A DNA stretch of 64,000 nt from an uncultured Chloroflexia bacterium (GTDB lineage: Bacteria > Chloroflexota > Anaerolineae > Anaerolineales > Villigracilaceae). The stretch is taken from NCBI GenBank assembly GCA_963754835.1, contig CAVWHR010000047.1:35568-99567 (forward strand), in the 5' to 3' direction. Below the pieces are notes generated by a model. The model saw only the letters and a list, made by a program, of their open reading frames with translations. It made no database searches and was not told where the DNA came from. Both the position numbers and the translations under genes were made by a program. Below, piece by piece: positions 30,220-51,064 of this stretch (the first letter of the stretch is position 1; each line of letters begins with the position of its first letter).

Positions 30220-30276
30220 TGGTGATGAGCCGCGGGACGATGCCTGCGCCTTCCAAATCAACGGTGACATCTACAA

Positions 30277-33382: not shown

Positions 33383-33497
33383 GAAATGACAGCGCCATCA
33401 GGTTTGGCAGCAAACTATACATTAAAGTAAAGATTGTCTCATCCTAAACGCAGCCTGTGCAGGCCGCCGACAACACATTGCCGCAGAGATAAGCACT

Positions 33498-34962: not shown

Positions 34963-35465
34963 CGGGACCTTGAATTCTTTGTAGATTTCTTCGGTGGGGC
35001 AAAAAAAATTGACGGGCACCTGTTTAATGGAGCTCAACCAATGTAATAACCAACACGTGTACCTATTATCCAGCCGGGGAAATGGTGCGGGTGAACGGGG
35101 CGTTGTCGTATGTGCTGAGGGACAACCTCGGTTCGGCCATGACAAGCGGCTGCCGGTTTTGCGGAATGTGGTCAAGGAATCTTGCGGAGGATAGATGCGC
35201 CTGGTCCTAATCAAGACGATAATTCGGTAAGAGGCGGGCAAAGCAGTCATAAAGTCCTTGGTATCGGGATGCCATAAAAACAGTTACCTGATTTCGAATC
35301 CAAATAATCTTATGCAAGAAGCCATCTTAAACAAAACCAGCCCCTGAGGATCATTTGGGGCTGGTTCGTTATATGAATCTATATCATCTCAGGTATTCTT
35401 GTAATCTTTCATCGGAAATGGTTCGGCCGCCATGTTATTTTTTCCGGTTGCCTTCGGCCACGTCA

Positions 35466-35665
35466 AATAAATGAGCGGAGCGTGGTTCCTGGCATAATTT
35501 GTTGTCTGGAGGCCCCATATTTAGGGAGCATGAGCCTCGCCGTGACTATATGTTGTATTCCCTTGAGATTACCTCGCCAACGCGATATTTGGATGAGCCT
35601 GGGCGGTGGCATTAGTCATAGAAATAGTGTATCACGGGCGAGGCAGGAGGCCAAAGTCGAATCCA
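35466..35665 (-). repeat. Repeat family copy B, conserved core 35546..35640
   Basis: Same core as copies A, C and D. Lies 260 nt upstream of the STAND-propeller operon. Confidence 0.8.
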
Positions 35666-35899
35666 TTAGCAGATTACGTAATCCAATATTTCGGTGTACG
35701 ATAATTATCCTAAGATCAAAGCGTTAAAAGGATAAGTTAAGTCAATATAGGTCGGTATATCTGAATTTAATCATGCAGGATAAATGTTGCTAAAAAAGAT
35801 GACAATTGCTCATTATAAATAGATAAGTTTTTCTTTATGATTATTTAACCAAGATTATAAAGGGGGTTGTCATTGTCATTTACAAATAGCGAGGGTTAA

Positions 35900-38800
35900 T
35901 TGGGCGAAATCATCAATCCATATATTGCAGGGGCGCCTGTCATCGAGGCACGCATGTTCTTTGGCCGCGACGATGTTTTCGATTGGATTGAGAAGAGCAT
36001 TACAGGGCAATACGCTGAACACATCCTCGTCATCCATGGTCAACGCCGGGTAGGCAAGACCTCTGTTCTGAAGCAGCTTGGCAACCGACTCCCATCCAAA
36101 TACATCCCAGTCTTTTTCGACCTGCAGGGACGGACCCACACCACACTCGACCGGTTTTTGTGGTGGCTGGCGCGCGAGATCGTGCGTGAGTTGAAGCAGG
36201 AATGTAATATAGACATGTCCCTCCCGGAAAAGGAAGCCTTCGCCGGGGACGCCGAGTTCTTCGAGAGCCATTTCCTGCCCGACCTAAAGAGCAAGATCGG
36301 CGAACACACTCTACTGCTGACATTCGATGAATTCGATAATCTGGAAGAGAGCGAGATCAAGGAAGCCCTGGGCAGGCCATTAATTGATTACCTACGGCGC
36401 TTGATGGGTATGCAGGGACTGACCTTCATCTTCTCGATAGGTTCCTCGGGCCGAAAGCTGGAAAACATGCAGGGTTCTTATACCGAGTTTTTCAAGACCG
36501 CCCTGTATAAAAAAATCAGTTTTCTGAGCGAAGACCAAACACAAAAATTGGTTACCCGTCCGGTGGAAGGCATCCTGGAGTATGAGCCTGCTGCCGTCGA
36601 ACGCATCTATGCGATTGCCTCCGGCCATCCGTACTTCACCCAGTTAACTTGTCATGAGGTTTTTGCACGCTGCCAGCAAACCGAGCAGAGACGGGTGCAA
36701 AAAGAGGACGTGGAAGCGGTGCTGGATGATGTGGTTGAACGCGGTACGGTCAATCTGAAATTCGTCTGGGACGACGCCACTGACCTGGAAAAATGGACGC
36801 TGGCCGCCCTGGCACAATTGGGGAAAACCGACAGCCGCTCGCTGGCTGAATACCTGCGCAAGCAAAGAGTCCGGTTCAGCGATACCGATCTTAACACCAG
36901 CCTGTTGCACCTTCGGGAGAAGGATGTCCTCACATCCGAAAACCGATTCATCATACAGCTGCTGAAGCGCTGGCTGGAAAAAAACCGACCCATCGAGCAG
37001 GTACGCGAAGAACTGACTGAAGTCAACCCGATCGCCAACCGCTATATTGAAATTGGTTTGGAATTCAGTGAAACGCGGCAATACGATCAGGCGATCGATA
37101 GCTTCCAACGGGCGTTGGAGGTCGATACAGATAACATCCAGGCACAGGTCAACATCGCCGAAGTCTACATGGATCAAAAAGACTTTGAAAGGGCTGTCGT
37201 TGAGTTCGAAAAGGCCCTGGCTTTTGACGATGAAGATGTCTCAGCCCGCTCAGGATTATGTGAAGCCCACCTGGCATTAGGGGACGCGGCCATACGCAGG
37301 AACCGCATCAAGGACGCGATCCTGTCGTATCAACGCGTACTGACAATCAATTCAGAGCACATCGAGGCCCGCCAGCGCATGGCGGAGATGATGCGTCAAC
37401 GGGCCGAGAAAGCGTTGACAGATGGCAGGGACGAAGAGGCATTGTCTGCTTTCTCCGAAGCTCTAAAATATACGCCCGAAGAACCGGTCCTCATCGAGCG
37501 CGTGGAACAAGTCAGGACGGAGAAAAAAGCCAAAGTATTGGCTGCACAATTCGCGCGGTCCGAGAAAGAAGCAAGCTCAAAAAATTGGGATAAAGCCATC
37601 GCTGCGTTGAATGAAGCATTGGAGATCGCCCCCGGCGACGAATCCATCCTGAAAAAAATCGCGGATGTAAAAGAAAGCCAATTAAATGAGCGCTTGAAGA
37701 CAATCCTTGCAAAAGCAGACCAGGCTGAAAAGCTGAGCCGCTGGGACACGGCTGTCGCCGCATTAAGAGAATATCTCTCGCTGAAAGAAGATGATGTAAA
37801 GATCCAGAAGCGCCTGGCGGATTTAATCGAAGCAAAACATTCCACATGGCTGAAAACAATCCTAACCCGGACCGAAGAGGCCGTTGCAGCTCAAAAATGG
37901 GATGATGCATTCGCGGCCTTGAACGAGATACTCTCGATCGAGCCGGAGAATCTTGAAATCCAGAAAAAGATGGAGGAAGTCCGCAAGGCGCAAAAGACCG
38001 CGAAGCTGGGTTCGATTCTCAGACAGGCGGAGCAGGTTGCGCAAGCGGGAAAATGGGACGAGGCGATTGAGGCATTAAACAATGGTATTGCGTTGGCGCC
38101 GGCGGATGAAAGATTGCAAAAGGAACTGACGCAGGTGATGGAGGCAAAGCGGACAGCGCGTCTGAAAGCTGCATTACGCCTGGCTGAAACCGCCGCACAA
38201 TCCAATAAATGGAATGTGGCAATTGATTCGCTGAACGAGATTTTAACGGTTGAGCCAGAGAACCATGAAATACAAAACAAGCTGAAAGAAATACAAAAAA
38301 GACAACGCGAGAACCGGTTGAATGCATTGCGGACGCAGGCTATGTCGATGGAGCGCACCGAGCGATTCGAAGAAGCGCTTTCTGCGTGGCAGGCATATCT
38401 CGCTCTCGAACCAGATGATCGCCAGGCAGCCCAGGTTGAGATCGGATCGGTGAAAAAGGCGCAAGAGCTGGCGTTATCCTACGCCACTGCACAAAACGCG
38501 TTCGCAAAGAAAAATTATGACAAAGCAATTGGCCTACTTAAGGGGATCGTCGTAGAGAACGCTGATTACAAAGAAGCCTCCCATTTGATGGCGGAGGCGG
38601 TCGAACTGCGCCGCACCGCCCGCAAGTGGTGGCAAAGCCGCTGGCTGTGGAGCAGTGTTGGGATCGCGGCTGTCGTTGGATTGGTCTTCATAGCCATACG
38701 ATTTGCCCCACTTCAGATGGCAGTCCCCGGAACGCCGATTGCCATATCCATTGTCGGCACTCAAGTCACTGTCGCGGCCACGGTGCAGCCCACCACTGCT

Positions 38801-40654
38801 CCGACCCCCATACCAATGGCATGGTCCCGCATAAATTCAACCCAATTCCTGTCGCGCGATACCATCCATGCCATAGCCATCAACCCCTCCGACCCGGGAG
38901 TGATCTATGTTGGCACCCTTAACGCGGGTGTATTCAAATCAATTGACGGCGGTGTCTCGTGGCAGCCTGCCCAAAACGGAATGGGCGGTGCGTCCATCGA
39001 CACGCTGGTAATCGACCCACAACAACCCGATACGCTTTTTGCCGGCGTCTATTCCGGTGGACTCTATAAGACCACCGATGGAGGCGCAAATTGGGTGTCG
39101 TATGGTTCGGAGTTCGAGAGTGGCGGGATCGACAGCATCATCGTGATGGACCCTGCGGACCATCTGCATTTATATTACGCACCCGATGCGCCTAATTTCG
39201 AGAGCCAGGATGGTGGCAAGACCTGGTCGAAATTCAATCTGGACTCGCCCCGACCTTGTCCCAATCAGATCGGGGCCCTGCTCCTGGACCCGGAAGATCA
39301 ATCCCTGTATGCAAATCAGTGGGGAAACGATGGGACATGCAAACCCGGGGTCTATCAATCTGGGGACCACGGCCGGACCTGGACTCTGGTCGGTTTAAAA
39401 GATGTCAGCTTTATTACCGGTCTATTTATTGGGACGGATTTTAGTGGAGACAAACTGCTCATCGCAATTACGGATCAACACGTGTATTTTTCTATTGATC
39501 AAGGGAAAACGTGGAACACACAAGCCATCTCCTGCCGCGCAATCGCTGTCGACCCTCAGGCCCTTACCACTCTATATTGTGCGAATTGGAATGGTGGCAT
39601 CAGTAAATCGATTGACGCTGGATCATCCTGGACAGATCTCCCGGGGGTGAAATCCGAAACTTTTCAAGCCATCTCTGTCCTGGCCGGAGCCTCTCCCCGC
39701 CTGGCCGCGGGAGGTATAAAAGTCTTCATCTCCGCCGATCAGGGTGTATCGTGGAACAATTACGACAGCGGCCTGGCGGGACAACAGGAAGACCTGACGC
39801 TCGACCCATCCAACCCGTCCATCTTCTATTTGAAAAACAATGCTGCTTGGGAAGATTGCCATCCTCTGTATCGTTCAAATGATGCCGGGCGTACCTGGAA
39901 CCAGATTTCTTCCACAGGCTGCGGATTGACCTTCGGACCCGAAGGGACGGACCTTTATCGAGCTGAAAGTAGCCGGCTTTCCCATTCCACCGACCAGGGT
40001 TCTCATTGGACTACTCTCACCATGCCATCGGGTTGCGAGCAGGTGTATGCAAATCCGTACGCTCCGGGTGAATTGATCGCATCCTGTCCGGGCAGTGACC
40101 CAAATACTTTTTTTTATTCGAATGATTTCGGGAAAACCTGGCAGCAATCCAACGGGGATAGTGAACGAATGGACGTTAACCGATTGTTCTTTGGCGGAAG
40201 TACCGGGCAGCGCGTCTATGCTATTTACTCTCCAGATTACCGGTCGGACGACGGCGGTAAATCCTGGCAAGCTTGCGGGAGTACAGGCTTGGCATCTTCA
40301 TCATCTTCCGATTCCCGTCTGATCATCGATCCACAAAACCCCGATCACATCCTTCGGACTTCCGAAGGCGCGGGTGTCCTGATCAGTACTGACGGTTGTC
40401 GGTCCTGGACACCAAGCAACACCGGCTTGGGCAGCCTGATGGTCAATACCCTGGCGCGCGACCCGAAGAATGTCAACACTATCTACGCCGGCACAGACGG
40501 CGGAGCCTATATATCCTTTAATGGCGGTCAAAGCTGGGGACAGATCAACGACGGCCTGCTCGGCGTAAACGCGGTGTATTCGATTGTGGTGGACCCACAG
40601 TCGAATGTCTACGCCGCCACGCCCTATGGGATCTTCAAGTTGGAGAGCAAGTAA
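35900..40654 (+). CDS. STAND-type P-loop NTPase + TPR + 7x52-aa helical repeats + TM + double Asp-box (BNR/sortilin-like) beta-propeller
   Basis: 1584 aa with a TTG start after GAGGG. NPYIAGAPV..FFGRD..HGQRRVGKTS (Walker A) and LLLTFDEFD (Walker B). TM segment WLWSSVGIAAVVGLVFIAI preceded by RRTARKWW. Thr/Pro linker. 13 S.DGG.SW-type Asp-boxes. Confidence 0.85.
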   Translation: MGEIINPYIAGAPVIEARMFFGRDDVFDWIEKSITGQYAEHILVIHGQRRVGKTSVLKQLGNRLPSKYIPVFFDLQGRTHTTLDRFLWWLAREIVRELKQECNIDMSLPEKEAFAGDAEFFESHFLPDLKSKIGEHTLLLTFDEFDNLEESEIKEALGRPLIDYLRRLMGMQGLTFIFSIGSSGRKLENMQGSYTEFFKTALYKKISFLSEDQTQKLVTRPVEGILEYEPAAVERIYAIASGHPYFTQLTCHEVFARCQQTEQRRVQKEDVEAVLDDVVERGTVNLKFVWDDATDLEKWTLAALAQLGKTDSRSLAEYLRKQRVRFSDTDLNTSLLHLREKDVLTSENRFIIQLLKRWLEKNRPIEQVREELTEVNPIANRYIEIGLEFSETRQYDQAIDSFQRALEVDTDNIQAQVNIAEVYMDQKDFERAVVEFEKALAFDDEDVSARSGLCEAHLALGDAAIRRNRIKDAILSYQRVLTINSEHIEARQRMAEMMRQRAEKALTDGRDEEALSAFSEALKYTPEEPVLIERVEQVRTEKKAKVLAAQFARSEKEASSKNWDKAIAALNEALEIAPGDESILKKIADVKESQLNERLKTILAKADQAEKLSRWDTAVAALREYLSLKEDDVKIQKRLADLIEAKHSTWLKTILTRTEEAVAAQKWDDAFAALNEILSIEPENLEIQKKMEEVRKAQKTAKLGSILRQAEQVAQAGKWDEAIEALNNGIALAPADERLQKELTQVMEAKRTARLKAALRLAETAAQSNKWNVAIDSLNEILTVEPENHEIQNKLKEIQKRQRENRLNALRTQAMSMERTERFEEALSAWQAYLALEPDDRQAAQVEIGSVKKAQELALSYATAQNAFAKKNYDKAIGLLKGIVVENADYKEASHLMAEAVELRRTARKWWQSRWLWSSVGIAAVVGLVFIAIRFAPLQMAVPGTPIAISIVGTQVTVAATVQPTTAPTPIPMAWSRINSTQFLSRDTIHAIAINPSDPGVIYVGTLNAGVFKSIDGGVSWQPAQNGMGGASIDTLVIDPQQPDTLFAGVYSGGLYKTTDGGANWVSYGSEFESGGIDSIIVMDPADHLHLYYAPDAPNFESQDGGKTWSKFNLDSPRPCPNQIGALLLDPEDQSLYANQWGNDGTCKPGVYQSGDHGRTWTLVGLKDVSFITGLFIGTDFSGDKLLIAITDQHVYFSIDQGKTWNTQAISCRAIAVDPQALTTLYCANWNGGISKSIDAGSSWTDLPGVKSETFQAISVLAGASPRLAAGGIKVFISADQGVSWNNYDSGLAGQQEDLTLDPSNPSIFYLKNNAAWEDCHPLYRSNDAGRTWNQISSTGCGLTFGPEGTDLYRAESSRLSHSTDQGSHWTTLTMPSGCEQVYANPYAPGELIASCPGSDPNTFFYSNDFGKTWQQSNGDSERMDVNRLFFGGSTGQRVYAIYSPDYRSDDGGKSWQACGSTGLASSSSSDSRLIIDPQNPDHILRTSEGAGVLISTDGCRSWTPSNTGLGSLMVNTLARDPKNVNTIYAGTDGGAYISFNGGQSWGQINDGLLGVNAVYSIVVDPQSNVYAATPYGIFKLESK
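37526..38632 (+). repeat. Seven tandem 52-aa (156-nt) helical-hairpin coding repeats inside the 1584-aa ORF
   Basis: Units such as RLKTILAKADQAEKLSRWDTAVAALREYLSLKEDDVKIQKRLADLIEAKHST and KLGSILRQAEQVAQAGKWDEAIEALNNGIALAPADERLQKELTQVMEAKRTA. The last unit ends in RRTARKWW just before the TM. Confidence 0.8.
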
Positions 40655-42930
40655 TGGCAGATCATCGCGATCTCGAACAGATTTATACCGACGCTAAATC
40701 TGCACTCAAAGTCCGGGACTACGACCGCGCCCGGGGCTTGTTGACCAGCATCCTGGCGGTGGATGAGAACTACCGGGATGCATCCCGCTTGCTGGCCCAA
40801 ACCGTCCGTTTGCGACGGCGACGCTGGCACAACCATCCAGCGCTATGGATGGTGATCGGGTTGGCCGTTTTGGTCGGACTGGGAATCGTCATCGCTCCCA
40901 AACTTCAGGGTTCATTTTCCAGGCAAATTTCTTCCCCAACACAACCACCAACGGTTACACAACCTATACAGACCACGGCCGTCTCCTCACCGACCTCCGC
41001 AGCGACTCCCATCCCATTGACCTGGTCCCGCCTGAGCCTGGCTCAAATTCTGCCGCGGGACACCATACATGCAATAGCCATCAATCCCTCCGATCCGGAT
41101 GTGATCTATATTGTTACACAGCATGCGGGTGTATACAAATCGATAAATGGCGGTGTCTCCTGGCAACCTGCCCAAAATGGAATGGAAGGCGCGTCCATCG
41201 ATACCCTGGTAATCGATCCCCAACAACCGGAAACGCTTTATGCCGGCGTCTACCAGGGTGGACTATATACGACTACCGACGGAGGCGCAAATTGGGTATC
41301 CTACGGTTCGGAATTTACTGTTAACTACGGTGACAGCTTCATCGTGATTGACCCTGCAAACCATCAACACCTATATTACGATACATCCCAGGCACTGCGC
41401 GAGAGCCATGACAGCGGCGAGACCTGGCCAGAAACCAGCCAGGACTGTCCTAATCAAGTAGGAGCTCTTCTTTTGGATCCCGCAGATCAATCCCTGTATG
41501 CAAGTCAATCACAGGCTGGTGGATCGTGCACCTCGGGGGTTTATCGTTATCAATCTGGCGACTACGGCTGGACATGGACTTTGGTCGGATTAAATGGAGT
41601 CAATGATATTAATGGTCTTTATATAGGGAAGGATTTACGCGGAGACAAACTGCTCATCGCTAAGGCAGAATCGGAAAAATCCCCAGATTCAATCTCCTCG
41701 CCCTCACACGTATATTTTTCTACTGATCATGGGAAAACGTGGAACACCCAGGCCATCGCATGCAACACGCTCGCCGTCGACCCTCAGACAACTACTACTT
41801 TCTATTGCGCGAAAACCAACGGCGGGTTGATTAAATCCACTGACGGCGGAATAACCTGGAAGAGTTTTCTGGGGGTGAATTCCGGAACATACCAGGCCAT
41901 TTCTGTGCTAGCCGGCCCTTCTCCCCGCCTGGTCCTTGGAGGTACAAACGTCGCCATCTCCGCCGATCAGGGCGCCTCATGGACTAATTACGATAGCGGC
42001 CTGCCGGGACAACAAGTAGACCTGACGCTCGACCCATCCAACGCGTCTATTTTCTATGTGAAATCTGTTGGATCGGATACTGATGAAATGGCCGATTGCG
42101 ATCTCTTTTATCGCTCAATTGACACTGGGCGTACCTGGAATCAGAATTCTTCCGCGGGCTGTGGTTTGACCTTCGGGCCCGGAGGAATAGACCTCTATCG
42201 AATCGGTCTTTATCAAATCGCCCGCGAGATGGGTGGTGTTGCCAGTGTGCTTTTCCATTCCACCGATCAGGGTGCTCATTGGACCAATATCTCCTTACCA
42301 TCATACAACGTCCGGCGAGTGTATGCAAATCCATTTGTGCCGGGTGCATTGATCATAGTCGCTTATAGCCCAGGCCCCAATTCCTTTTTCTATTCGAATT
42401 TCGGGTATGACTGGCGGCCGTCCAGCGGATCTGACCGATATGACCCCCTAGTCCGGCTGTTCTTTAGTGGAAGTACTGGGCAGCGCGTCTATGCCGTGTA
42501 CTCGTCCCCTCCCGATTACCGATCCGATGACGGTGGTAAATCCTGGTACTCTTGCGGGGACGCAAATACACAACCATCCTTTTCCGATTCCCGTCTGATC
42601 ATCGATCCGCATAACCCCGATCACATCCTTGAAGCCACTCAAGGCTATGGGGTCGCGATCAGTACTGACGGCTGCTGGTCTTGGAAAGTAAGCAACGCTG
42701 GTCTAGGCAGCCTGTTGGTCAATACTCTGGCGCACGACCCGAAGAATGCCAACACAATCTATGCCGGCACGGACGGCGGAGCTTATGTGTCTTTCGACGG
42801 CGGCCAAAGCTGGGGCCAGATCAACGGCGGTTTGCTCGGAGCGAATGTGGTGTATTCGATCGTGGTGGACCCGCAGTCAAATGTCTACGCCGCCACACCT
42901 TATGGGATCTTCAAGCTGGAGAGCAAATAA
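40654..42930 (+). CDS. TM Asp-box beta-propeller paralog 2 (one helical unit + RRRRW + TM + linker + propellers)
   Basis: 758 aa. TAATG overlap with the previous stop. MADHRDLEQIYTDAKSALK..RLRRRRW, TM segment LWMVIGLAVLVGLGIVI, many S.DGG.SW motifs, and the conserved C-terminus VVYSIVVDPQSNVYAATPYGIFKLESK. Confidence 0.85.
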   Translation: MADHRDLEQIYTDAKSALKVRDYDRARGLLTSILAVDENYRDASRLLAQTVRLRRRRWHNHPALWMVIGLAVLVGLGIVIAPKLQGSFSRQISSPTQPPTVTQPIQTTAVSSPTSAATPIPLTWSRLSLAQILPRDTIHAIAINPSDPDVIYIVTQHAGVYKSINGGVSWQPAQNGMEGASIDTLVIDPQQPETLYAGVYQGGLYTTTDGGANWVSYGSEFTVNYGDSFIVIDPANHQHLYYDTSQALRESHDSGETWPETSQDCPNQVGALLLDPADQSLYASQSQAGGSCTSGVYRYQSGDYGWTWTLVGLNGVNDINGLYIGKDLRGDKLLIAKAESEKSPDSISSPSHVYFSTDHGKTWNTQAIACNTLAVDPQTTTTFYCAKTNGGLIKSTDGGITWKSFLGVNSGTYQAISVLAGPSPRLVLGGTNVAISADQGASWTNYDSGLPGQQVDLTLDPSNASIFYVKSVGSDTDEMADCDLFYRSIDTGRTWNQNSSAGCGLTFGPGGIDLYRIGLYQIAREMGGVASVLFHSTDQGAHWTNISLPSYNVRRVYANPFVPGALIIVAYSPGPNSFFYSNFGYDWRPSSGSDRYDPLVRLFFSGSTGQRVYAVYSSPPDYRSDDGGKSWYSCGDANTQPSFSDSRLIIDPHNPDHILEATQGYGVAISTDGCWSWKVSNAGLGSLLVNTLAHDPKNANTIYAGTDGGAYVSFDGGQSWGQINGGLLGANVVYSIVVDPQSNVYAATPYGIFKLESK

Positions 42931-45224
42931 TGGCAGATCATCCCGATCTCGAACAGATCTACACCGAGGCCAAATCTGCTCTCAAAGCCCGGGAGTATGA
43001 CCGCGCCCGGGATTTGTTGGCTAGCATCCTGGCGGTAGACGAGAACTATCGAGATGTTTCCAGGTTGTTGGCTCAAACCGTCCGGCTTCGCCGGCGACGC
43101 TGGTACAACGATATCCGCTTATGGGGGTCGGTGATCGGCTTGGTTGTAATTGGTCTGCTTGTTTGGATCGTTCCCAAGATATCACTGAAAGCGGCACTGC
43201 CATCTCTGGCGCCTGATATAAGCTCGTTGGTGACAGCAATCCCGGCGAATACGACCATACCAACCGTTTCAACCTCGCCCACACAAACTTCCATTCCACT
43301 GGCATGGAAGAGGGTTTCCATCGGACAGGAGTTTTCGCGTGATACCATAACTGCAATTGTAGTTTCCCCCCAGGACCCTGACATCATTTACATCGGAATG
43401 CAGAGCGCGGGTATCTTCAAGTCAATTGATGGAGGGGTTTCCTGGACGCCCACACAACAGGGGATCGCCAATGCGCAGATCCTGTCATTGGTGATCAACC
43501 AACAGGATTCGAACACACTGTTAGCTGCAACGCAGGGGGGAGTGTTTGTAACACATGACGGAGGAAAATCCTGGACACAAGCAAGCGATAGGATTGGCAA
43601 TTTTCTCCTGATCGATCCAAAGAATGGTTCCCACCTGTACCTTGGAGATGGGTCAAGTGTCTTCGAATCGAATGATATGGGAGCTACATGGAATCAAACA
43701 AGCGGTGAAAGGACTTGTCCATCCCGGAGTAGTTACCACACCCTGGTCATGGATCCCAATAACAGCAGCACTCTTTTCGCAACTACCTCGGGGGAGAATG
43801 AGGGTATGGGAGGCTGTCAGGGAGTTTATCGCTCAACAGATAATGGCCGCTTGTGGACAAGACTGGGGCTGGAAGGGGCTGATGCATTTGTGATTACGCA
43901 GGGACAAGACGGAAATAGCGTCTACCTTACTGATGCTCAGTTCGAGCCCGCCCATGGTGTCAGAAATAAAGGTGGCAGCACCCTAAGCGGATTAGTAGTC
44001 TCTACAAACCAGGGTAAAGATTGGAGCATGCAGCAAAACTATTATTGCATGATATTAACAACCAACCCACAAAATCCCACTTCTGCTTATTGTGGCATCG
44101 AACAGGGAGGCCTCTCCCGGATTTCTTCACCCTTTGGCGGCGTGCTTAGCTCCGGCATAAGTGCTGAACACGTGACTGCCATCCATGTTGACACCTACAA
44201 TGGTCAGGAACGGATCATAGCAGGGGTTGAAAAGAATGGGCTTTATATTTCCAAGGATGGAGGCAAATCGTGGTCTCACCAAATTGGCGGAATAGGATCT
44301 TCGTATTTGGACTTAAATGAATCGGTTGACGGTACAAAGTTGTACGTGAATATAAAATATGACAGTATTAACTGCACCTTATACAGGTCAGATGATGGCG
44401 GCAGGAATTGGAAAACCATTCTTAGTATCGCGAATACGATAGACGAGAATGACAGGAAGAATATGGGCTTCAATGGATTCTCTATATGCTATCCTGGAAT
44501 GGACGCCGATAATAACCTATATACTATCCAGGATTTGGCACCGATGCAATTCAAAAATGGGGGTGACATTTGGGGATCTATTTCAATGCCAAAACTATTT
44601 GAACCACTATCGCTAGGAAACAGATGGATCTCAGCAAATCCGCACATATCTGGATTATTGTACTTTACATCTTGGGAGGAGCCTTATTTATATTACTCCA
44701 TCGATCAAGGTCAATCATGGCAGAAAAGCGCCGGTGCGTCCCAGCATGATAACCAGGATATCAATGCACCTTTATTTTTTGATGATTCAGGAAACATCGT
44801 GTATCGGGAATGGCAACTGTCTCTGGATGCCGGAAAAACATGGCAGGATTGTAATGGAAAATTGGCAAGAAATGATTATTCCGATTCCTTTCTGACCGTT
44901 GACCCGGGAAATAGCAAGCATATAATAATTGCATCTATGGGGGGAATCTGGACCAGCACAGACGGCTGCCAGTCCTGGACTGCAAATAACACCGGTATCG
45001 GGAGTCTGTTCGTGAATTCGGTTGACTTTGACCCTAAGAACCCCAATATTGTCTACGCCGGCACGGATAGCGGAGCCTATGTGTCCTTCGATGGCGGCCA
45101 AAGCTGGAGCCAGATCAACGACGGCCTGCTCGGCGCAACCGTGGTTTATTCGATTATGGTCGACCCGCAGTCCAATGTCTACGCCGCGACACCTTATGGG
45201 ATCTTCAAGCTGGAGAGCAAGTGA
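42930..45224 (+). CDS. TM Asp-box beta-propeller paralog 3 (divergent ectodomain)
   Basis: ATG at 42930 overlaps the TAA (TAATG). MADHPDLEQIYTEAKSALK..RRRRW plus TM. I reject the upstream ORF extension to 42681. Same conserved C-terminus. Confidence 0.85.
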   Translation: MADHPDLEQIYTEAKSALKAREYDRARDLLASILAVDENYRDVSRLLAQTVRLRRRRWYNDIRLWGSVIGLVVIGLLVWIVPKISLKAALPSLAPDISSLVTAIPANTTIPTVSTSPTQTSIPLAWKRVSIGQEFSRDTITAIVVSPQDPDIIYIGMQSAGIFKSIDGGVSWTPTQQGIANAQILSLVINQQDSNTLLAATQGGVFVTHDGGKSWTQASDRIGNFLLIDPKNGSHLYLGDGSSVFESNDMGATWNQTSGERTCPSRSSYHTLVMDPNNSSTLFATTSGENEGMGGCQGVYRSTDNGRLWTRLGLEGADAFVITQGQDGNSVYLTDAQFEPAHGVRNKGGSTLSGLVVSTNQGKDWSMQQNYYCMILTTNPQNPTSAYCGIEQGGLSRISSPFGGVLSSGISAEHVTAIHVDTYNGQERIIAGVEKNGLYISKDGGKSWSHQIGGIGSSYLDLNESVDGTKLYVNIKYDSINCTLYRSDDGGRNWKTILSIANTIDENDRKNMGFNGFSICYPGMDADNNLYTIQDLAPMQFKNGGDIWGSISMPKLFEPLSLGNRWISANPHISGLLYFTSWEEPYLYYSIDQGQSWQKSAGASQHDNQDINAPLFFDDSGNIVYREWQLSLDAGKTWQDCNGKLARNDYSDSFLTVDPGNSKHIIIASMGGIWTSTDGCQSWTANNTGIGSLFVNSVDFDPKNPNIVYAGTDSGAYVSFDGGQSWSQINDGLLGATVVYSIMVDPQSNVYAATPYGIFKLESK

Positions 45225-47001
45225 TGGCAGAGCATCCCGATCTCGAACAGATCTATACCAACGCCAAATCTGCACTCAAAGCCCGGGACTATGACCGCGC
45301 CCGGGACTTGCTGACCAGCATCCTGGCGATAGACGAGAACTATCGAGATGTTTCCAGGTTGCTGGCCCAAACCATCCGGCTGCGCCGGCAACGCTGGTAT
45401 AACGAGTCCGCTTATGGGGGATAGTGATCGGCTTGGTTGCGATTGGTTTGTTCGTATGGATTGTCCCAAAGTTGTCATTGCGAACGACACCGGCATCTCC
45501 GGCGATGAAGATAAGCTCCCCTGCAACAACCATCTCCACAAATGCAGCCATGCCAACTGTTGCATCCTCACCAACTCCAACTGCCTTTCCGCTGGCATGG
45601 AAACGCATTTCCATTGGACAGGAATTCACACGTGATACATTGACCGCCCTCGTTATTGACCCCGAAGACCCAGATATATTGTATGTTGACACGCAACATG
45701 CCGGTATTTATAAATCCATCAATGGAGGAATTTCTTGGGGGCCTGTCCAATCCAACAAACTTTCTAATAGTCCTTCTTACTCAATCTTATTGCAAGCCAG
45801 CCATGATGCCACCCAGCACGTAAGCACCTTTTCCAACACTGCCCCAGATGGAATAGAAAGAATGTATCAATTTGGCGATTTGGTTAAAGGTGTATCGAGT
45901 TTTTGGTATATTTCTGAAGATGGAGGAACGACCTGGAAAAGATTTTCTGAAGGAGGGACTTATGGAGATTCGAACACAATTGCTTTTGGCGCATCAGGAA
46001 CGGTTTTTGTTTTCTGCGGCAACAATATCTGTAAGTTCAGCCCGGATGCCAAGGATTTGACTGTACTGGGAAAGCCGGATGTGGGTGCCGAAAAGCTAAT
46101 TAGCATTTCATCCTCTAATCCAAACATCATCTATGCTGGTGGAGAAGGCCTGGCTGTTTCCAAAGATGGTGGATATACCTGGACAAAATTGAACAACGGA
46201 TTGGGAAATACAATATTAAGTTTGGAATCGGCAAAGGGAACACACAATGTTCTCTACCTGCAACCAGGCGAATGCAACAGAAACAGAGACAGGTCAACCA
46301 TGGAGCAGCCGCTTTACAGGTCCATGGACAATGGATCAACGTGGGAATACCTCCGGAAGGATGGGTGTTTCTTAATCGCGGACGCTGATGGACAAACATT
46401 TTATCGCCTGGGGACCGATGGTGATTATTTTCCCTGGATATGGCACCTGTCCAACAATGGGATGGAATGGGATAAAACCCTCATCCCGTCGCCTATCACC
46501 ACCCTCGTTGCAGATCCGAACCAACAGGGAGTATTGTACGCTTACGATGACCGGACTCCCGAGCACAAGTATGTTTCCAAAAATGATGGATTCACCTGGG
46601 ATAACGCATCCCAATCAAACGTCGGACCATGTTATGGCTCCACAATATATTTTCTCGACAGCTTTAAGCCAATGGCAATCGATCCTAATGACAACAATCA
46701 TGTTTACTTTGTTCAGGAAGGCAAGTTACAAGAGTCCTTGGATAGTTGCAACACTTCTAGTCCCGTTAAGGGAAATCCACCCGACAACATTAATTCAATC
46801 GCCATTGACCCAAACAATCCCTATACGCTCTATGCTGGTACAAACAGCGGCGCGTACGTCTCTTTCGATTCTGCCAAATCATGGAATCAAATCAACGACG
46901 GCCTGCTCGGCGCAACCGTAGTGTATTCGATCGTGATTGACCCGCAGTCGAATGTTTACGCCGCCACGCCTTATGGGATCTTCAAGCTGGAGAGCAAGTA
47001 A
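45224..47001 (+). pseudogene. TM Asp-box beta-propeller paralog 4 (shorter, divergent ectodomain); one -1 frame break at about 45405 between the helical unit and the TM
   Basis: TGATG overlap. Fragment 45221..45424 (MAEHPDLEQIYTNAKSALK..RRQRWYN) and fragment 45424..47001 (RVRLWGIVIGLVAIGLFVWIV..). Compared with paralog 3, one nt is missing in AACGAG-TCCGC. Confidence 0.8.
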
Positions 47002-49268
47002 TGACAGATCATCTCGATCTCGAACAAATTTACGCTGATGCAAAATCTGCAATCAAAGAAGGGGATTACGATCATGCACGGGATCTGTTGACCAGCATAC
47101 TGGCGGTGGACGAGAACTATCGAGATACATCCCGCTTGCTGGCACAAACCATCCGGCTGCGCAGGCGACGCTGGTATAACCATCCGGCATTATGGACGGT
47201 GATCGGGTTGATTGTCTTGATAGGAATTGGGATCCTCATCGCTCCTAAACTGCAAGGTTCACTAACCGGGCAAATTCCTCGTCCAGCACAACACCCAACG
47301 ATTATTCAACCTTTACAAGCCACCGCCGTTTTCTCACCGACTCCCGCACCTACCACCGCACCCACTTCTATCCCATTGACCTGGGCGCGGCTGAATCTTG
47401 CTCAATTCTTGGGGCGTGAAACCATCCATACAATAGCCATCAACCCCTCCGATCCCGATGTGATCTATGTAGGCTTCCTGAACGCGGGCGTGTTCAAATC
47501 GATTGATGGCGGAGTCTCCTGGCAGCCTGCCCAAAATGGGATGGCAGGTGCATCCATCGACACCTTGGTCATTGATCCTCAGGAACCGGATACGCTTTAC
47601 GCTGGCGTCTACCGGGGCGGCCTCTATAGGACTACCGACGGAGGTGCAAATTGGGTGTCCTACGGTCCGAAGTTTGAATATGGCGACGGCGTCGACAGTA
47701 TCGTTTTGATCGACCCTAGGGACCATCTGCATTTGTATTATGCTCCCAAAGGATTGTATTTCGAGAGCCGAGATGGCGGCAGGACATGGTCAAATATCAT
47801 CCCGACCTGCCCCGATCAGGTCGGAGCTCTGATCCTGGATCCCGCCGATCAATCTCTGTACGCAAGTCAGTATGGGGATGATGGGGCCTGCCCAGCCGGG
47901 GTTTATCATTATCAATCTGGCGCCCACGGCTGGACCTGGACTTTGGTCGGTCTGGAGGCTGTCGAAAATATTAATGGCCTCTTTATGGGGACGGATTCAG
48001 GCGGAGACAAACTGCTCATCGCAAATTCACAGGCACTACCGGGGCACGTGTATTTTTCTACTGATGATGGGAAATCGTGGACGATGAAAGCCATCCTCTG
48101 CATAACAATCGCAGTCGACCCTCAGACCCCTACGACCCTCTATTGCGGGAAAAGGAATGGTGGGATTCTTAAATCCACTGACGGCGGATCATCCTGGAAA
48201 AGTATCCTTTGGGCGGTGTTTGGAGATACTTTCCAAGCCATTTCTGTCCTGGCTGGCCCCTCTCCCCATCTGGTCGCCGGAAGTACAGAAGTCGCCATCT
48301 CCACGGATCAGGGCGCCTCGTGGAACAATTACGAAAGCGGCTTGGCGGGACAACCAGTTGACCTCATGATCGACCCATCCAACGCGTCCATTTTCTATTT
48401 GAAATATAATGATCAGTATGTAGCAGATTGCCATCCTTTGTATCGCTCCATGGATGCCGGGCACACTTGGAAATTGATTTCCTCCACGGGCTGTAGCTTG
48501 ACATTTGGACCTGGAGGAACGGACCTTTATCGAGTCACCATAACGGACAATGGTTATGCTGGCATCTTAGGGAATGAGATAGGTGGCCTGCTTTTACATT
48601 CTGCCGACCAGGGTGCGCATTGGGATACTCAATTTATACCATCCGGTTGTGACCACGTATTTGCAAATCCATTCACGCCAGGTACATTGATCACATCCTG
48701 TTCGACTAAGGACCCCCCTTCTGTATACTTTTATTCGAATGATTTTGGGAAGCACTGGCAGCCATTCAGCGATGTGGGTGGCCCAATTTACAATGTCGGG
48801 TTTTACTTTGGCGGAAGTGCCGGGCAGCGCGTCTATGCTATTTATGCTTCGGATTACCGGTCCGATGATGGCGGTAAATCCTGGCAACCATGCGGGGATC
48901 CAGGCGCGCCTTCATCTTCTTCCGATTCCCGTCTGATCATCGATCCGCAAAACCCCGATCACATTATTCGGACTTCCGAAGGCGCGGGTATCTTGATCAG
49001 TACTGACGGCTGTCGGTCCTGGACAAAGAGCAACAACGGCCTGGGCAGCCTGTTGGTCAATACCCTGGCACACGACCCAAAGAATATGAACACCATTTAC
49101 GCCGGTACAGATGGCGGAGCCTATGTATCCTTCAACGGCGGCCAAAGCTGGGGTCAGATCAACGACGGATTGCTCGGCGAAACCGTAGTGTATTCGATCG
49201 TGGTTGACCCGCAGTCGAATGTTTATGCTGCCACACCCTACGGGATCTTCCAACTGGAGAAAAAATGA
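47001..49268 (+). CDS. TM Asp-box beta-propeller paralog 5
   Basis: 755 aa with a TAATG overlap. MTDHLDLEQIYADAKSAIK..RRRRW plus TM. Closest to paralog 2. C-terminus ..PYGIFQLEKK. Confidence 0.85.
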   Translation: MTDHLDLEQIYADAKSAIKEGDYDHARDLLTSILAVDENYRDTSRLLAQTIRLRRRRWYNHPALWTVIGLIVLIGIGILIAPKLQGSLTGQIPRPAQHPTIIQPLQATAVFSPTPAPTTAPTSIPLTWARLNLAQFLGRETIHTIAINPSDPDVIYVGFLNAGVFKSIDGGVSWQPAQNGMAGASIDTLVIDPQEPDTLYAGVYRGGLYRTTDGGANWVSYGPKFEYGDGVDSIVLIDPRDHLHLYYAPKGLYFESRDGGRTWSNIIPTCPDQVGALILDPADQSLYASQYGDDGACPAGVYHYQSGAHGWTWTLVGLEAVENINGLFMGTDSGGDKLLIANSQALPGHVYFSTDDGKSWTMKAILCITIAVDPQTPTTLYCGKRNGGILKSTDGGSSWKSILWAVFGDTFQAISVLAGPSPHLVAGSTEVAISTDQGASWNNYESGLAGQPVDLMIDPSNASIFYLKYNDQYVADCHPLYRSMDAGHTWKLISSTGCSLTFGPGGTDLYRVTITDNGYAGILGNEIGGLLLHSADQGAHWDTQFIPSGCDHVFANPFTPGTLITSCSTKDPPSVYFYSNDFGKHWQPFSDVGGPIYNVGFYFGGSAGQRVYAIYASDYRSDDGGKSWQPCGDPGAPSSSSDSRLIIDPQNPDHIIRTSEGAGILISTDGCRSWTKSNNGLGSLLVNTLAHDPKNMNTIYAGTDGGAYVSFNGGQSWGQINDGLLGETVVYSIVVDPQSNVYAATPYGIFQLEKK

Positions 49269-51064
49269 CCCAGCCACATGAGGTATTCATCAGTTATTCC
49301 AGCCAGGACAAATCTACAGCTGAAGCTATCCGGGAAACTCTCGAGAATGCGTCCCTGGGGTGCTGGATTGCTCCACGCGACATCACTCCTGGCCTGAAAT
49401 ATGCTGAAGCGATCCTGGATGGCATCGACCAATGTAAGGTATTCTTGCTGGTACTCACAGAATCCGCCAATGCCTCCCCACAGGTTGAGATGGAGGTCAA
49501 TCGGGCGGCCAGTCAGAATAAGCTCATCCTGTCACTCAAGCTGGACCAGACCAAGCTATCCAAATCGCTTGAATATTACCTGGGCAACCGGCACTGGCTG
49601 GAGGCTCCCAACCCACCTGGGGAAAAGCACAACCAGGCGCTGATCTCTGCGGTCCGGCAATTAATCTCTCCCGGCGAGTCGCAACCGGGACTAGCCGCCA
49701 TGGACAAGGAAGAGCATGTAATTCCTGCCACGCCGATCGTTCCAGAGGAGAGGAAACGAATGGCAACCGTTCCTTCCAACCCGTTCACCTTTGGGAACCC
49801 GATCAACGAACCGGAACGATTCATTGGGCGGAAGACCGAAATTCGCCAGATCCTCAACCGTTTGCTCTCCAGCGCCCATGAAAGCACATCCATCATCGGA
49901 GAACGCCGCATCGGCAAGACTTCCCTGCTGTATCACCTTTCCAATCCCGAGATCGCCGAGACTCTCGGCCTGGCCCCCAACCAATTCTGCCTGTTTTATG
50001 TGGACTTTCAAGGCCTGACCGATATCACCCCGCAACGTTTCTGGCAGCGGGTGCTTGGCAAGATGGCGAAATCCATTTGCGATGACAGTTTGAAACCGGT
50101 CATCGAATCCGTCATTAAACAAAATAAATTCGACTTGTTCGACCTGGAGGATGTCTTCGAAAAAACCCAGGATCACGGCCTGACTGTCGTTCTGTTCATG
50201 GACGAATTCGAATATGTCACCCAGAACCAGAACTTCAAATCAGATTTCTTCGGCGGGCTGCGCGCCCTGGCGATCCATCATGGGGTGGCGCTCGTCCCGG
50301 CTACCCGGCGCGAACTGGCTGACCTATGTCATTCGGAGGAGATCAAGGGCTCGCCATTCTTCAATATTTTCGCCAACGTGGTCCTGCGTCCGTTCTCCCG
50401 CGCCGAAGTTGATGAACTGCTGGATGGTTATTCCAAGGAGAGCGGACGATCCTTCGACCCGGGCGATCGCGCTTTTATCTGGAACCTGGGCGGTGGCTAT
50501 CCACTTTTCGTGCAGATGGCCGGTTACTATCTGGTCGAAGGCCGGCTGCAAAACCTGGCTGGCAAAGACTTGGTTGAATTCGTCATTGATAACTTCAACC
50601 AGCAAACCGATTCGCATTACACCTACTTATGGGGCCATTGCTCGGATAGCGAAAAGATCGCCCTGCTGACTCTTCTGACCCTGAGACTCCAACCGGAAAC
50701 CCCTAAAAACGTTCCGACTCTCGAAAACCTGACCCGCCTGCGTACGCGTATTCCCCAGGATTTGGGTGTGCTGAAAAAAAGGGGGCTGATTTCTCAGACG
50801 GACGGTCAATATCGCATCTTCTCGTCCACTTTCGAGAATTGGATCCGCTTGGAAATCCTGTCATTCCCGGGGACAGAGGAATCCCAGACCACGGTGGAAG
50901 AATGGCTCAAATCAGGTGGAAGGGAGAATTTAAAAGAAACCAGGCAAGTGCTCCCCGGAATTAAAAAGAAATACTGGAGCCTCATGTCTGAGCTTTTCAG
51001 GGATTTCTCACTGGAATTCGCCGCCGTCGGCACCTTGGAGATCATCAGGACCTTTATTCATTAA
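49265..51064 (+). CDS. TIR domain fused to a STAND-type P-loop NTPase (no repeat or sensor domain)
   Basis: 599 aa with an ATGA overlap with paralog 5. TIR: VFISYSSQDKSTAEAI..CWIAPRDITPG..VFLLVLTESANASPQVEMEV. NTPase: NPFTFGNPI..FIGRK..IGERRIGKTS and VVLFMDEFE, homologous to the NTPase of the 1584-aa ORF. Confidence 0.85.
   Translation: MTQPHEVFISYSSQDKSTAEAIRETLENASLGCWIAPRDITPGLKYAEAILDGIDQCKVFLLVLTESANASPQVEMEVNRAASQNKLILSLKLDQTKLSKSLEYYLGNRHWLEAPNPPGEKHNQALISAVRQLISPGESQPGLAAMDKEEHVIPATPIVPEERKRMATVPSNPFTFGNPINEPERFIGRKTEIRQILNRLLSSAHESTSIIGERRIGKTSLLYHLSNPEIAETLGLAPNQFCLFYVDFQGLTDITPQRFWQRVLGKMAKSICDDSLKPVIESVIKQNKFDLFDLEDVFEKTQDHGLTVVLFMDEFEYVTQNQNFKSDFFGGLRALAIHHGVALVPATRRELADLCHSEEIKGSPFFNIFANVVLRPFSRAEVDELLDGYSKESGRSFDPGDRAFIWNLGGGYPLFVQMAGYYLVEGRLQNLAGKDLVEFVIDNFNQQTDSHYTYLWGHCSDSEKIALLTLLTLRLQPETPKNVPTLENLTRLRTRIPQDLGVLKKRGLISQTDGQYRIFSSTFENWIRLEILSFPGTEESQTTVEEWLKSGGRENLKETRQVLPGIKKKYWSLMSELFRDFSLEFAAVGTLEIIRTFIH

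Follow-up and report, generated by a model that had tools for sequence, protein, structure and literature searches.

A membrane-spanning STAND-type NTPase and a TIR-bearing partner NTPase in an Anaerolineales operon: a candidate two-NTPase signalling module

How can a bacterium respond to something outside its membrane when the proteins that seem built to sense it carry no effector and the protein that carries the effector has no sensor? This question is raised by an operon of six genes (O1 to O6) from an uncultured Anaerolineales bacterium (assembly GCA_963754835.1, contig CAVWHR010000047.1, positions 35,568 to 99,567). The whole stretch of 64,000 nucleotides is called the window here, and positions are counted from its first letter. 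O1 encodes a STAND-type NTPase that is predicted to be connected across the membrane to a pair of beta-propellers, O2 to O5 encode smaller transmembrane (TM) propeller proteins, here called satellites, and O6 encodes a TIR domain fused to a second NTPase. Comparison with relatives shows that the conserved unit is the receptor NTPase together with the partner NTPase, and that the TIR domain, the propellers and the satellites are variable add-ons. We favour, with about as much doubt as confidence, a two-NTPase membrane signalling module in which the O1 receptor would nucleate O6, with the TIR domain as its output. The genes, and the modules of O1 and O6, are as follows.

35900-40654, + strand: O1, receptor, 1584 aa, TTG start
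35900-37009, + strand: O1 aa 1-370, STAND-type NTPase module, predicted cytoplasmic (Walker A GQRRVGKTS, Walker B LLLTFDEFD)
37010-37549, + strand: O1 aa 371-550, canonical TPRs, predicted cytoplasmic (Pfam)
37550-38641, + strand: O1 aa 551-914, seven 52-aa helical TPR-like repeats, predicted cytoplasmic stalk (self-comparison)
38648-38716, + strand: O1 aa ~917-939, single TM helix, predicted N-in/C-out (hydropathy, flanking charges)
38825-40654, + strand: O1 aa 976-1584, predicted extracytoplasmic twin Asp-box beta-propeller (Pfam, Asp-boxes)
40654-42930, + strand: O2, 758-aa satellite with helical hairpin, RRRRW, TM helix, linker and twin propeller (AlphaFold2 (AF2) model)
42930-45224, + strand: O3, satellite of 764 aa counted from the ATG at 42930, same layout as O2 with divergent propellers (Pfam, TM helix 60-91)
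45224-47001, + strand: O4, frameshifted satellite with a shorter ectodomain (O4b, Sortilin-Vps10 55 bits)
45224-45424, + strand: O4a, 66 aa, front half of satellite 4
45424-47001, + strand: O4b, 525 aa, rear half of satellite 4
47001-49268, + strand: O5, 755-aa satellite, closest paralogue of O2 and of the O1 ectodomain (Sortilin-Vps10, BNR)
49265-51064, + strand: O6, partner, 599 aa, TIR domain and nSTAND2 NTPase
49265-49669, + strand: O6 aa 1-135, TIR domain (TIR_2; Glu77; RD..PG BB-loop)
49775-51064, + strand: O6 aa 171-599, soluble nSTAND2-type NTPase with winged-helix region and FKKKYW tail (nSTAND2)

The genes overlap at five stop/start junctions on the same strand (TAATG at 40652-56, 42928-32 and 46999-47003; TGATG at 45222-26; ATGA at 49265-68), each of them exactly where a first-pass annotation of the window had read it. 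This is the arrangement of a translationally coupled operon, the coupling itself being predicted from the overlaps. The same annotation had counted seven genes; there are six, the open reading frames (ORFs) O4a and O4b being the two halves of one satellite, which a 1-nt frameshift divides. The orthologues of O1 support its TTG start: they have ATG at this position and begin with MGEIINPYIAG.

Two paralogous NTPases, one predicted to span the membrane

STAND proteins are said to be recognised by a Walker A motif GxxxxGK[ST] and an acidic Walker B motif, and they reportedly consist of the NTPase followed by a helical domain, a winged helix and C-terminal superstructure repeats with a sensor or autoinhibitory role. 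The Walker A and Walker B motifs are intact in both O1 and O6 (GERRIGKTS and VVLFMDEFE in O6) and are invariant in alignments. The motifs NP[YF]xxGxP, FxGR, G[QE]RRxGKTS, DxQGxT, DEF[DE] and GxPYFxQ are common to the two NTPases. BLASTP aligns them with 24% identity over 310 aa (E 8e-15), and hhalign of 18 O1-type against 40 O6-type modules gives a probability of 97.9% (E 3.8e-13) over 278 columns. Judged from these alignments, the O1 and O6 NTPase modules are paralogous. The first-pass annotation had assigned both to one family, and the kinship stands; their best Pfam families differ, however. The O1 NTPase (aa ~20-260) matches ATPase_2 (47 bits, cut-off 33.2), AAA_22 and AAA_35 (33 bits, cut-off 27) and gives no match to the nSTAND2 model at E <= 0.1, whereas O6 matches nSTAND2 (PF20702) over aa 207-466 with 79 bits (cut-off 24). 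P0075, a TIR-less relative, matches nSTAND2 with 93 bits.

The AF2 model of O6 has a predicted local distance difference test score (pLDDT) of 78.7, with values of ~80-90 across TIR residues 1-135, and has helices and a beta-hairpin at residues 486-531. Its best Foldseek match is the core of the plant TIR-NLR resistosome RPP1 (E 2.6e-11), followed by the archaeal ATPase_2-type structures 2qen and 2fna, ORC/Cdc6 and Avs4; NLRP3 and ROQ1 match as well. The model and these matches give O6 a STAND-like overall fold, to which the O1 NTPase is linked through the 278-column alignment. The C-terminal repeats of a STAND protein are present in O1 as TPRs and seven 52-aa repeats; O6 is without repeats, and in agreement with the first pass the Pfam scan found no repeat or sensor module in it.

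The TPRs of O1 are matched by TPR_1, TPR_2, TPR_11, TPR_16 and TPR_19, the best stretches lying at aa 382-483. When the O1 protein is compared with itself, only an offset of 52 aa scores, with units in register at 551, 603, 655, 707, 759, 811 and 863; Tandem Repeats Finder detected no tandem repeat in the O1 DNA, and the 52-aa period is seen at the protein level only. The TM helix reaches a Kyte-Doolittle peak of 2.31; RRTARKWW precedes it and a Thr/Pro-rich linker follows, and a helix of this type was found in 100 of 120 homologues. The ectodomain matches Sortilin-Vps10 (122 bits) and BNR. The architecture first described for O1 (NTPase, TPRs, seven 52-aa repeats, TM helix, linker and propellers) is recovered in all its parts, except that a strict pattern finds 12 Asp-boxes, not 13.

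On which side of the membrane do the propellers lie? An Arg/Lys cluster precedes the TM helix on its N side in each of O1 to O5, and the linker behind the helix is Thr/Pro-rich and disordered in the AF2 model of O2. The Cys counts of the five ectodomains are even (10, 8, 8, 6 and 10). The 10 ectodomain Cys of O1 compare with 4 in its 915 cytoplasmic residues, O2 has all 8 of its Cys in the ectodomain, and the cytoplasmic and TM parts of the satellites have none. Distant relatives of the O1 NTPase carry LysM, CAP, Reg_prop, PD40, CarboxypepD_reg or FGE-sulfatase domains at the position after the TM helix, several of which are typical extracytoplasmic domains. Because of the positive-inside charges, the disordered Thr/Pro linker, the ectodomain Cys and the extracytoplasmic domains of the wider relatives (LysM, CAP and Reg_prop among them), an N-in/C-out orientation with the propellers outside the cell, as the first pass had predicted, is strongly indicated.

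In O6, TIR_2 matches aa 7-115 with 68 bits (cut-off 28), and phmmer relates the TIR domain to the TIR-STING structure 6wt6 and to PdTIR 3h16. A conserved Glu had been pointed out in SPQVEMEV. The conservation holds, and alignment with the Glu of SEWSKFE in oyster TIR-STING places the putative NADase position at the second Glu of the motif, Glu77. S71, V74, E77 and A81 are invariant in all 32 TIR-bearing homologues, the RD..PG loop is invariant or nearly so, and the equivalent of Glu77 is kept also where the TIR domain is fused at the C-terminus.

Across 40 homologues, many alignment columns of the O6-type NTPase are invariant. All partner NTPases, TIR-bearing and TIR-less alike, end in a conserved FKKKYW(P) and a helix of ~30 aa (O6 aa ~566-599; 50960-51061), and this tail might be a membrane- or TPR-docking element. 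FKKKYW(P) echoes the RRRRW(Y/H)N that stands ahead of the receptor TM helix. A tail-anchoring TM segment was considered for the C-terminal helix and rejected: hydropathy averages 1.08 over 40 homologues (0.19-1.94), and the helix is more likely amphipathic.

Conservation of the NTPase pair and variability of its add-ons

The homologues of O6 with named sources are all labelled as Anaerolineales, Chloroflexota or Chloroflexi metagenome-assembled genomes (MAGs). They comprise forms of ~600 aa with a TIR domain and TIR-less forms of ~428 aa, the latter 64-69% identical over the NTPase. In six genomic contexts read gene by gene, an O1-type gene lies just upstream in all six. Among them, locus L001 has propellers, two satellites and a TIR partner, and L007 has propellers, three satellites and a TIR-less partner. 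L002, L005 and L006 have no satellites, and their ectodomains are of unknown type, 3keto-disac_hyd, or beta-helix with 3keto-disac_hyd.

A scan of species-representative genomes yielded 80 loci. The titles of 79 of these name Chloroflexota-lineage bacteria; the exception, L051, is a 5-kb contig binned as Vicinamibacteria. Of the Anaerolineales loci, 56 offer 6 kb or more of sequence ahead of the partner; in 52 of them an O1-type gene (NTPase at least 50% identical) lies upstream on the same strand. The four exceptions include one locus truncated by its boundary (L007) and probably a second (L054). Of 84 partner genes, 69 lack a TIR domain, 11 carry it at the N-terminus and 4 at the C-terminus, the C-terminal fusions having been confirmed by reading the ORFs. 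Two of the C-terminal fusions (L081:9962-11539 and L083:655-2229) have a Walker A motif degraded to GDSRMGNTS, in which the lysine is lost, and the 10 kb ahead of the L081 partner contain no O1-type gene. Propeller ectodomains occur at 21 of the 56 loci and satellites at 13, with up to four satellites per locus; each of the three features (TIR, propellers, satellites) varies independently of the other two. It is because the TIR domain, the propellers and the satellites are each confined to a minority that the pair of NTPases is taken as the conserved unit. The first-pass idea of sensors without an effector and an effector NTPase without a sensor therefore describes the window but not the family, in which most partners are TIR-less.

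On a neighbour-joining tree of the partner NTPases, built without support values, the state of the TIR domain changes at least nine times, and the root is TIR-less. At L004 a single protein (408-2564) carries an N-terminal TIR domain (SPQVAREVERA), RMNRRF, one TM helix, a Ser/Thr/Pro linker and an Asp-box propeller, and its gene adjoins an O1-type gene and a TIR-nSTAND2 gene. The invariant Glu77, the fusion at either terminus, the repeated changes of state and the L004 protein suggest that the TIR domain behaves as an effector. The receptors, for their part, bear ectodomains of the Sortilin/BNR, C-type lectin, FGE-sulfatase, 3keto-disac_hyd, beta-helix and Bmp types. Such swapping between orthologues on a conserved NTPase chassis suggests that the ectodomain behaves as a recognition module.

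The pairing extends beyond close relatives of the window. With O1 aa 2-370 as query, an exhaustive phmmer search yielded 1,403 clusters, formed at 50% identity, with E <= 1e-30. Representatives of this wider family, with NTPases 30-46% identical to that of O1, are shorter than O1 (500-1100 aa). Exactly one TM helix was found in 48 of 64, usually right after the NTPase at ~400-435 with no TPR stalk, and variable ectodomains follow the helix. A metagenome scan seeded with wider-family proteins gave 80 further loci, 46 of which have an O6-type partner adjacent on the same strand (33 partner-first, 13 receptor-first); at 23 of the remaining 34 the contig leaves no room upstream. Because the partner is adjacent at these 46 loci, the receptor NTPase and the partner NTPase form a general two-gene module, of which the window holds an elaborate Anaerolineales version.

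The synteny of the partner NTPase gene with a sensor-type gene, which the first-pass annotation had proposed as a check, is borne out by both surveys. That a TIR-NTPase gene was merely placed after a propeller array by chance is scarcely credible. TIR and propellers are indeed not specifically associated in relatives, but the synteny at 52 of 56 and 46 of 80 loci contradicts a chance juxtaposition, and the 4-nt ATGA overlap between O5 and O6 and the paralogy of the O1 and O6 NTPases speak against it as well. None of the four outcomes that the first-pass annotation had set against itself (NTPases of unrelated families, cytoplasmic propellers, loss of synteny in relatives, a TIR domain without catalytic geometry) was found outright.

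No third gene is conserved with the pair: among 141 sampled flanking genes the largest family has 5 members. O7 (51158-52510) lies 93 nt past O6 on the same strand and encodes two N-terminal TM helices and TrkA_N, an NAD-binding Rossmann domain. It was considered as an NAD-linked third component and rejected, since no downstream gene is conserved across loci; it is probably unrelated to the system. A TIR-less version of the pair is found in the cultured and completely sequenced Pelolinea submarina MO-CFX1 (L057; NZ_AP018437.1, 2769399-2790751), where a receptor open frame of 1183 aa with a propeller-type C-terminus is directly followed by a TIR-less partner open frame of 450 aa.

Propellers, satellites and the evolution of the array

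The satellite layout proposed in the first pass, one helical unit followed by RRRRW, a TM helix, a linker and propellers, is seen in O2, O3 and O5, which have a helical N-terminus of ~58 aa, a Thr/Pro-rich linker and 10-12 Asp-boxes. The satellite N-terminus matches 38462-38683 in O1 with 39% identity, the final 52-aa unit being the one retained. The ectodomain of O4 is ~170 aa shorter than those of the other satellites and has 5 strict Asp-boxes. O3 matches Sortilin-Vps10 with 116 bits. O5 is 68% identical to O2 and 66% to the O1 ectodomain, and the O1 ectodomain is 64-66% identical to O2 and O5. O3 is 40-45% identical to the O1 ectodomain, O2 and O5, and 47% to O4, which is itself 63% identical to a satellite of L001.

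The AF2 model of O2, built from 45 sequences, has a pLDDT of 87.5 and a predicted template modelling score of 0.85. In it, residues 7-59 form a helical hairpin, 62-86 the TM helix, 87-112 a disordered linker and 122-758 an all-beta propeller region. The top 25 Foldseek matches of this model are all GH74 xyloglucanases (E 4e-26 to 1.5e-20, TM-scores mostly ~0.45-0.50), which gives the ectodomain tandem seven-bladed propellers of the GH74 type. The model also matches the twin-propeller periplasmic sensors of the Bacteroides hybrid two-component systems (HTCS) BT4663, BT4673 and BT3049.

The likeness to GH74 raises the alternative that the propeller proteins are membrane-anchored GH74-like surface enzymes, with the NTPases serving assembly, folding or turnover and the TIR domain of O6 functionally unrelated. 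The best structural matches of O2 (E ~4e-26, TM-score ~0.47-0.50) point in this direction, as do a near-threshold match to the NCBIfam F510_1955 glycosylhydrolase family (159 and 157 bits, cut-off 175) and the genes for an acetyl-xylan esterase, an amylase and sugar transporters just upstream of the operon. However, at the first GH74 catalytic Asp motif (RTDIGG) Gln or Leu is aligned in O1, O2, O3 and O5, and the last-blade TDGG motif is unconserved across the family consensus, both as read by eye from repeat-level alignments in a non-rigorous way; these alignments did not confirm the pair of catalytic Asp residues that GH74 enzymes have in the cleft between the propellers. Orthologous receptors, moreover, swap the propellers for lectin, FGE-sulfatase or PBP-type domains and keep the NTPase pair. 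We know of no precedent for a STAND NTPase as an assembly factor, and we regard the surface-enzyme explanation as very unlikely.

Different parts of the operon have evolved in different ways. The closest orthologous operon, L001, served as the reference, with a synonymous divergence (dS) of ~0.85-0.95 in the cytoplasmic modules. Amino-acid identity and the ratio of nonsynonymous to synonymous divergence (dN/dS) are 94% and 0.04 for the O1 NTPase, 82% and 0.10 for the O1 52-aa repeats, 87% and 0.09 for the O6 NTPase and 81% and 0.10 for the O6 TIR domain. The O1 ectodomain is 44% identical to that of L001, with dS saturated. Because it is nearer to O2 and O5 of its own genome (64-66%) than to its orthologue, the O1 ectodomain has been replaced or converted and has not merely diverged.

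The ends of the five propeller genes are unusually alike. Their last 33 aa are ~90% identical on average, and the N-terminal 40 aa of the satellites ~60%. At third codon positions the five genes have identities of 0.60-0.80 over their final 120 nt; over the 120 nt before that, the values drop to 0.30-0.35 for all pairs with O4 and remain at 0.47-0.75 for the others. The similarity takes the form of a repeat at the junctions:

40460-40759, 42736-43035, 45030-45329, 46807-47106 and 49074-49373, + strand: junction repeat D1, 300 nt, five copies

D1 comprises the last ~190 nt of one propeller gene and the first ~105 nt of the next, and its copies are 66-87% identical to the reference. Because synonymous-site identity is unusually high at the gene ends compared with the interiors, gene conversion or unequal crossing-over at the ends is suggested, a process that would make and remove satellites. 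This suggests concerted evolution of the gene ends within the array.

Such an array invites comparison with allorecognition systems. In filamentous Anaerolineae the ectodomains might read neighbouring cells, with mismatch leading to TIR-dependent death by way of the NTPase pair, as in fungal HET-type NLRs. Polymorphic, swapped ectodomains on conserved signalling modules would fit kin recognition, as would the range of satellite numbers from 0 to 4, which junction repeats would help to expand and contract. Some MAGs carry two systems (L053/L080 and L060/L076); in the latter pair only L076 has a propeller-type ectodomain. The family is concentrated, going by record titles, in a multicellular filamentous lineage, and systems of such a kind have been linked with multicellular bacteria (PMC7159879, PMC8195603). 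Most of the systems, however, lack a death effector, and the wider family occurs on many soil and sediment metagenome contigs. Allorecognition is an improbable explanation of the module.

The frameshift in O4 cuts through the TM helix of satellite 4. O4a terminates with ...RQRWYNESAYGG*, within the region that forms the TM helix in the paralogues, and one extra base anywhere in 45400-45423 restores an uninterrupted satellite 4 frame, for example ...RQRWYNEXRLWGIVIGLVAIG.... The 66-aa product of O4a is annotated as a protein of the same contig in a public collection, so the frameshift belongs to the deposited sequence. A pseudogene and an assembly or sequence error are both candidate explanations. 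The reading of this frameshift is touched by the state of the region at 28000-35000. There the GC content climbs to 58-65% at 28-32 kb, where long ORFs overlap on both strands, and sugar-utilisation genes look truncated or split: a LacI-type periplasmic-binding domain has only 212 aa, two ABC permease pieces are present, and an alpha-amylase is split as 252 + 240 aa. This suggests either assembly indel errors or a decayed locus.

The operon is preceded by a long leader:

34963-35899, + strand: non-coding AT-rich leader (~940 nt) 5' of O1, presumed operon promoter region

No + strand ORF of at least 100 aa begins in this leader, and GAGGG stands just before the TTG of O1. A scan for consensus promoters and terminators found sites no more numerous than in shuffled sequence, and no promoter was assigned; Rfam and tRNA scans of the window gave no matches. 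Towards the start of the window, a separate cluster of lower GC content (41-48%) occupies 1722-22799. Its - strand encodes a 1365-aa protein with three FtsK/SpoIIIE domains (3796-7893), two PP2C/SpoIIE phosphatases (14946-17775) and a 547-aa FHA protein (19129-20772); further genes specify a Ser/Thr kinase (13938-14882) and a 574-aa FGE-sulfatase protein (21075-22799). Domain types of this cluster are counted among effector and signalling parts in the eLife conflict-system papers; a possible alternative is a connection with type VII secretion.

Proposed signalling mechanism and known systems

In the proposed mechanism, O1 would be a single-pass receptor with N-in/C-out orientation, its STAND NTPase and stalk in the cytoplasm and its GH74-like twin propeller outside. 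O6 would be its obligate soluble partner, a paralogous STAND NTPase without a sensor that has an N-terminal TIR domain in this lineage. A ligand would be bound outside the cell, most likely a glycan or a glycosylated surface, be it that of a phage, of a competitor or of a neighbouring cell. Its binding would release the autoinhibition of the O1 NTPase, and O1 would then nucleate an NTP-dependent hetero-oligomer with O6, as NAIP does on NLRC4 and sensor NLRs do on helper NLRs. The clustered TIR domains would build composite active sites that cleave NAD+ or make a signalling nucleotide, resulting in arrest or death. The satellites O2 to O5, duplicated copies of the last helical unit, the TM helix and the ectodomain of the receptor, may widen or tune the ligand range by docking via the shared juxtamembrane unit and TM helix. 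What the ligand is, that O1 and O6 hetero-oligomerise, that the TIR domain acts as a NADase and that the system serves conflict or surveillance are all points that we infer from the way in which other STAND/NLR and TIR proteins behave.

Several results weigh against this mechanism. A defence-island context is rejected, since the flanks are heterogeneous and mostly metabolic with no enrichment of defence genes. No relatives were found in collections of plasmids, phages and viral contigs, and mobile carriage is rejected for these. No significant match to a catalogued anti-phage system was obtained with PADLOC-DB v2, which gives weak, domain-level matches only: O6 to SAVED_TIR, PDC-S27 (E 1e-6) and ThsB (E 2e-7 to 2e-3 overall), O1 to PDC-S01 (E 3e-5), and none for the satellites. 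The 69 partners without a TIR domain have no other recognisable effector either, and so the conserved output may not be cell death. The NTPases are under strong purifying selection and apparently vertical within Anaerolineales, which a housekeeping sensor would fit equally well. The topology is argued from hydropathy, charge and domain types, and one of the satellites, finally, carries a frameshift.

These points lend weight to a serious rival, which we still consider unlikely: an outside-in sensor of environmental or envelope glycans that steers metabolism, sheath, envelope or filament behaviour, the TIR domain being a secondary add-on. Such a sensor would resemble the Bacteroides HTCS and the MalT-type STAND regulators. 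Every ectodomain type seen is a carbohydrate-binding or -processing fold (GH74-like, C-type lectin, FGE-sulfatase, 3keto-disac_hyd/LamG, beta-helix, Bmp and LysM), and O2 resembles the glycan-sensing BT4663, BT4673 and BT3049. Genes for sugar uptake and glycoside hydrolases are neighbours in the window and at several loci. The lack of a TIR domain in most partner genes, the lack of a defence-island context and the conservation of the NTPases across the order speak for the same explanation. However, Pfam finds no DNA-binding, kinase or cyclase output domain in O1 or O6, and no flanking gene is conserved as a regulated target. TIR has been gained repeatedly, and in three different positions, and the bacterial TIR domains characterised so far are, to our knowledge, NAD+-consuming effectors of defence or virulence. 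Ectodomain swapping between close orthologues and arrays of paralogues are also more typical of recognition arms races.

If O1 does nucleate O6 as proposed, an outside-in mode would be added to STAND signalling, by way of a membrane-spanning STAND and a dedicated partner NTPase; work on NLRs and STANDs assumes that ligands are sensed in the cytosol. More broadly, and with somewhat less confidence than doubt, STAND NTPases may also comprise a large and hitherto unrecognised class of single-pass TM receptors whose swappable ectodomains (propeller, lectin, LysM, CAP, FGE-sulfatase) sense ligands outside and which nucleate a partner NTPase, sometimes with TIR output. The family is tractable, being large, with a simple pairing rule, TIR variants that are N-terminal, C-terminal or absent, and many ectodomain types. 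Within it, recognition domains have been exchanged naturally while the signalling chassis stayed constant, and the TIR-less pair of Pelolinea submarina MO-CFX1 is a possible experimental entry point.

How new would such a module be? The first-pass annotation had likened the operon to paired sensor and helper NLRs and knew of no described system of its kind. The paired logic is not wholly new: Kaur et al. 2021 (PMC8195603, Fig. 6C) describe a two-gene operon of paralogous MNS-like/nSTAND2-type STANDs with a predicted hetero-toroid and an effector on one of them. The present operon is like theirs in having two adjacent STAND NTPase genes with an effector on one and in the match of O6 to nSTAND2, and the degraded Walker A on the TIR-bearing partners of L081 and L083 recalls their 'inactive' member. 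In their operon, however, the eroded NTPase carries GT4 or HEPN, whereas the P-loops of the window are intact and the effector is TIR or absent. Theirs, in the part of the source table that was read, come from alpha-, beta- and gammaproteobacteria with the order STAND+wHTH, then nSTAND2+wHTH+TPR+HEPN or GT4. In the present operon, the NTPase that lacks an effector crosses the membrane once and bears a TPR stalk and an ectodomain, the lineage is Anaerolineales with apparently vertical descent, and the nSTAND2 model is matched by O6 but not by O1. A text search of their supplements found neither BNR nor Sortilin, and the rows of the source table that were read contain no TM segment or ectodomain.

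Both TIR-STANDs and two-STAND operons have been described before; the searchable literature yielded no STAND that spans the membrane and bears an ectodomain. Fusions of lectin-type domains to STANDs are explicitly presented as intracellular sensors in PMC8195603, and the passages of Kaur et al. 2020 that mention transmembrane, extracellular or periplasm hold no STAND with a TM segment and an ectodomain. A 2026 survey of prokaryotic STANDs in Nature mentions neither membrane nor extracellular nor hetero-oligomer. An early mention of adjacent STAND paralogues may be contained in Leipe et al. 2004, who, according to PMC8195603, named an 'Npun2340/2341' family.

Among cytoplasmic TIR-STAND and Avs proteins (Avs4, PDC-S27), the likeness lies in an effector carried on a STAND, consistent with the Foldseek match to Avs4 and the weak match to PDC-S27. 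Avs proteins, however, are single-gene systems with their own C-terminal TPR-like sensor and respond to phage proteins in the cytoplasm, whereas O6 is sensor-less and paired with a receptor NTPase. The twin seven-bladed propellers outside the membrane recall the Bacteroides HTCS, in which they are TM glycan sensors, and the GH74 proteins. The output of HTCS, in contrast, runs through a histidine kinase, a receiver and AraC, and GH74 proteins are secreted enzymes.

The operon also resembles the paired and helper NLRs of plants and animals. NAIP-NLRC4, sensor NLRs with NRC helpers, and TIR-type NLRs (RPP1, ROQ1) combine sensing and signalling nucleotide-binding oligomerisation domain proteins with homologous NTPases and an oligomerisation-activated TIR effector, and the RPP1 core is the best structural match of O6. 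Those NLRs are all cytosolic, have intracellular ligands and belong to the NB-ARC or NACHT clade, not to MNS/ATPase_2-like NTPases, whereas here the sensor is predicted to cross the membrane and both genes stand in one operon. Toll-like receptors (TLRs) share extracellular recognition, a single TM helix and a cytoplasmic TIR domain, a layout that L004 has in one chain. The orientation is reversed here, with an N-terminal TIR domain and a C-terminal ectodomain, propellers or lectins take the place of leucine-rich repeats, and in the window two NTPases stand between receptor and TIR. If the proposed mechanism is correct, the operon would therefore represent a bacterial system that joins a TLR-like topology to the logic of paired NLRs.

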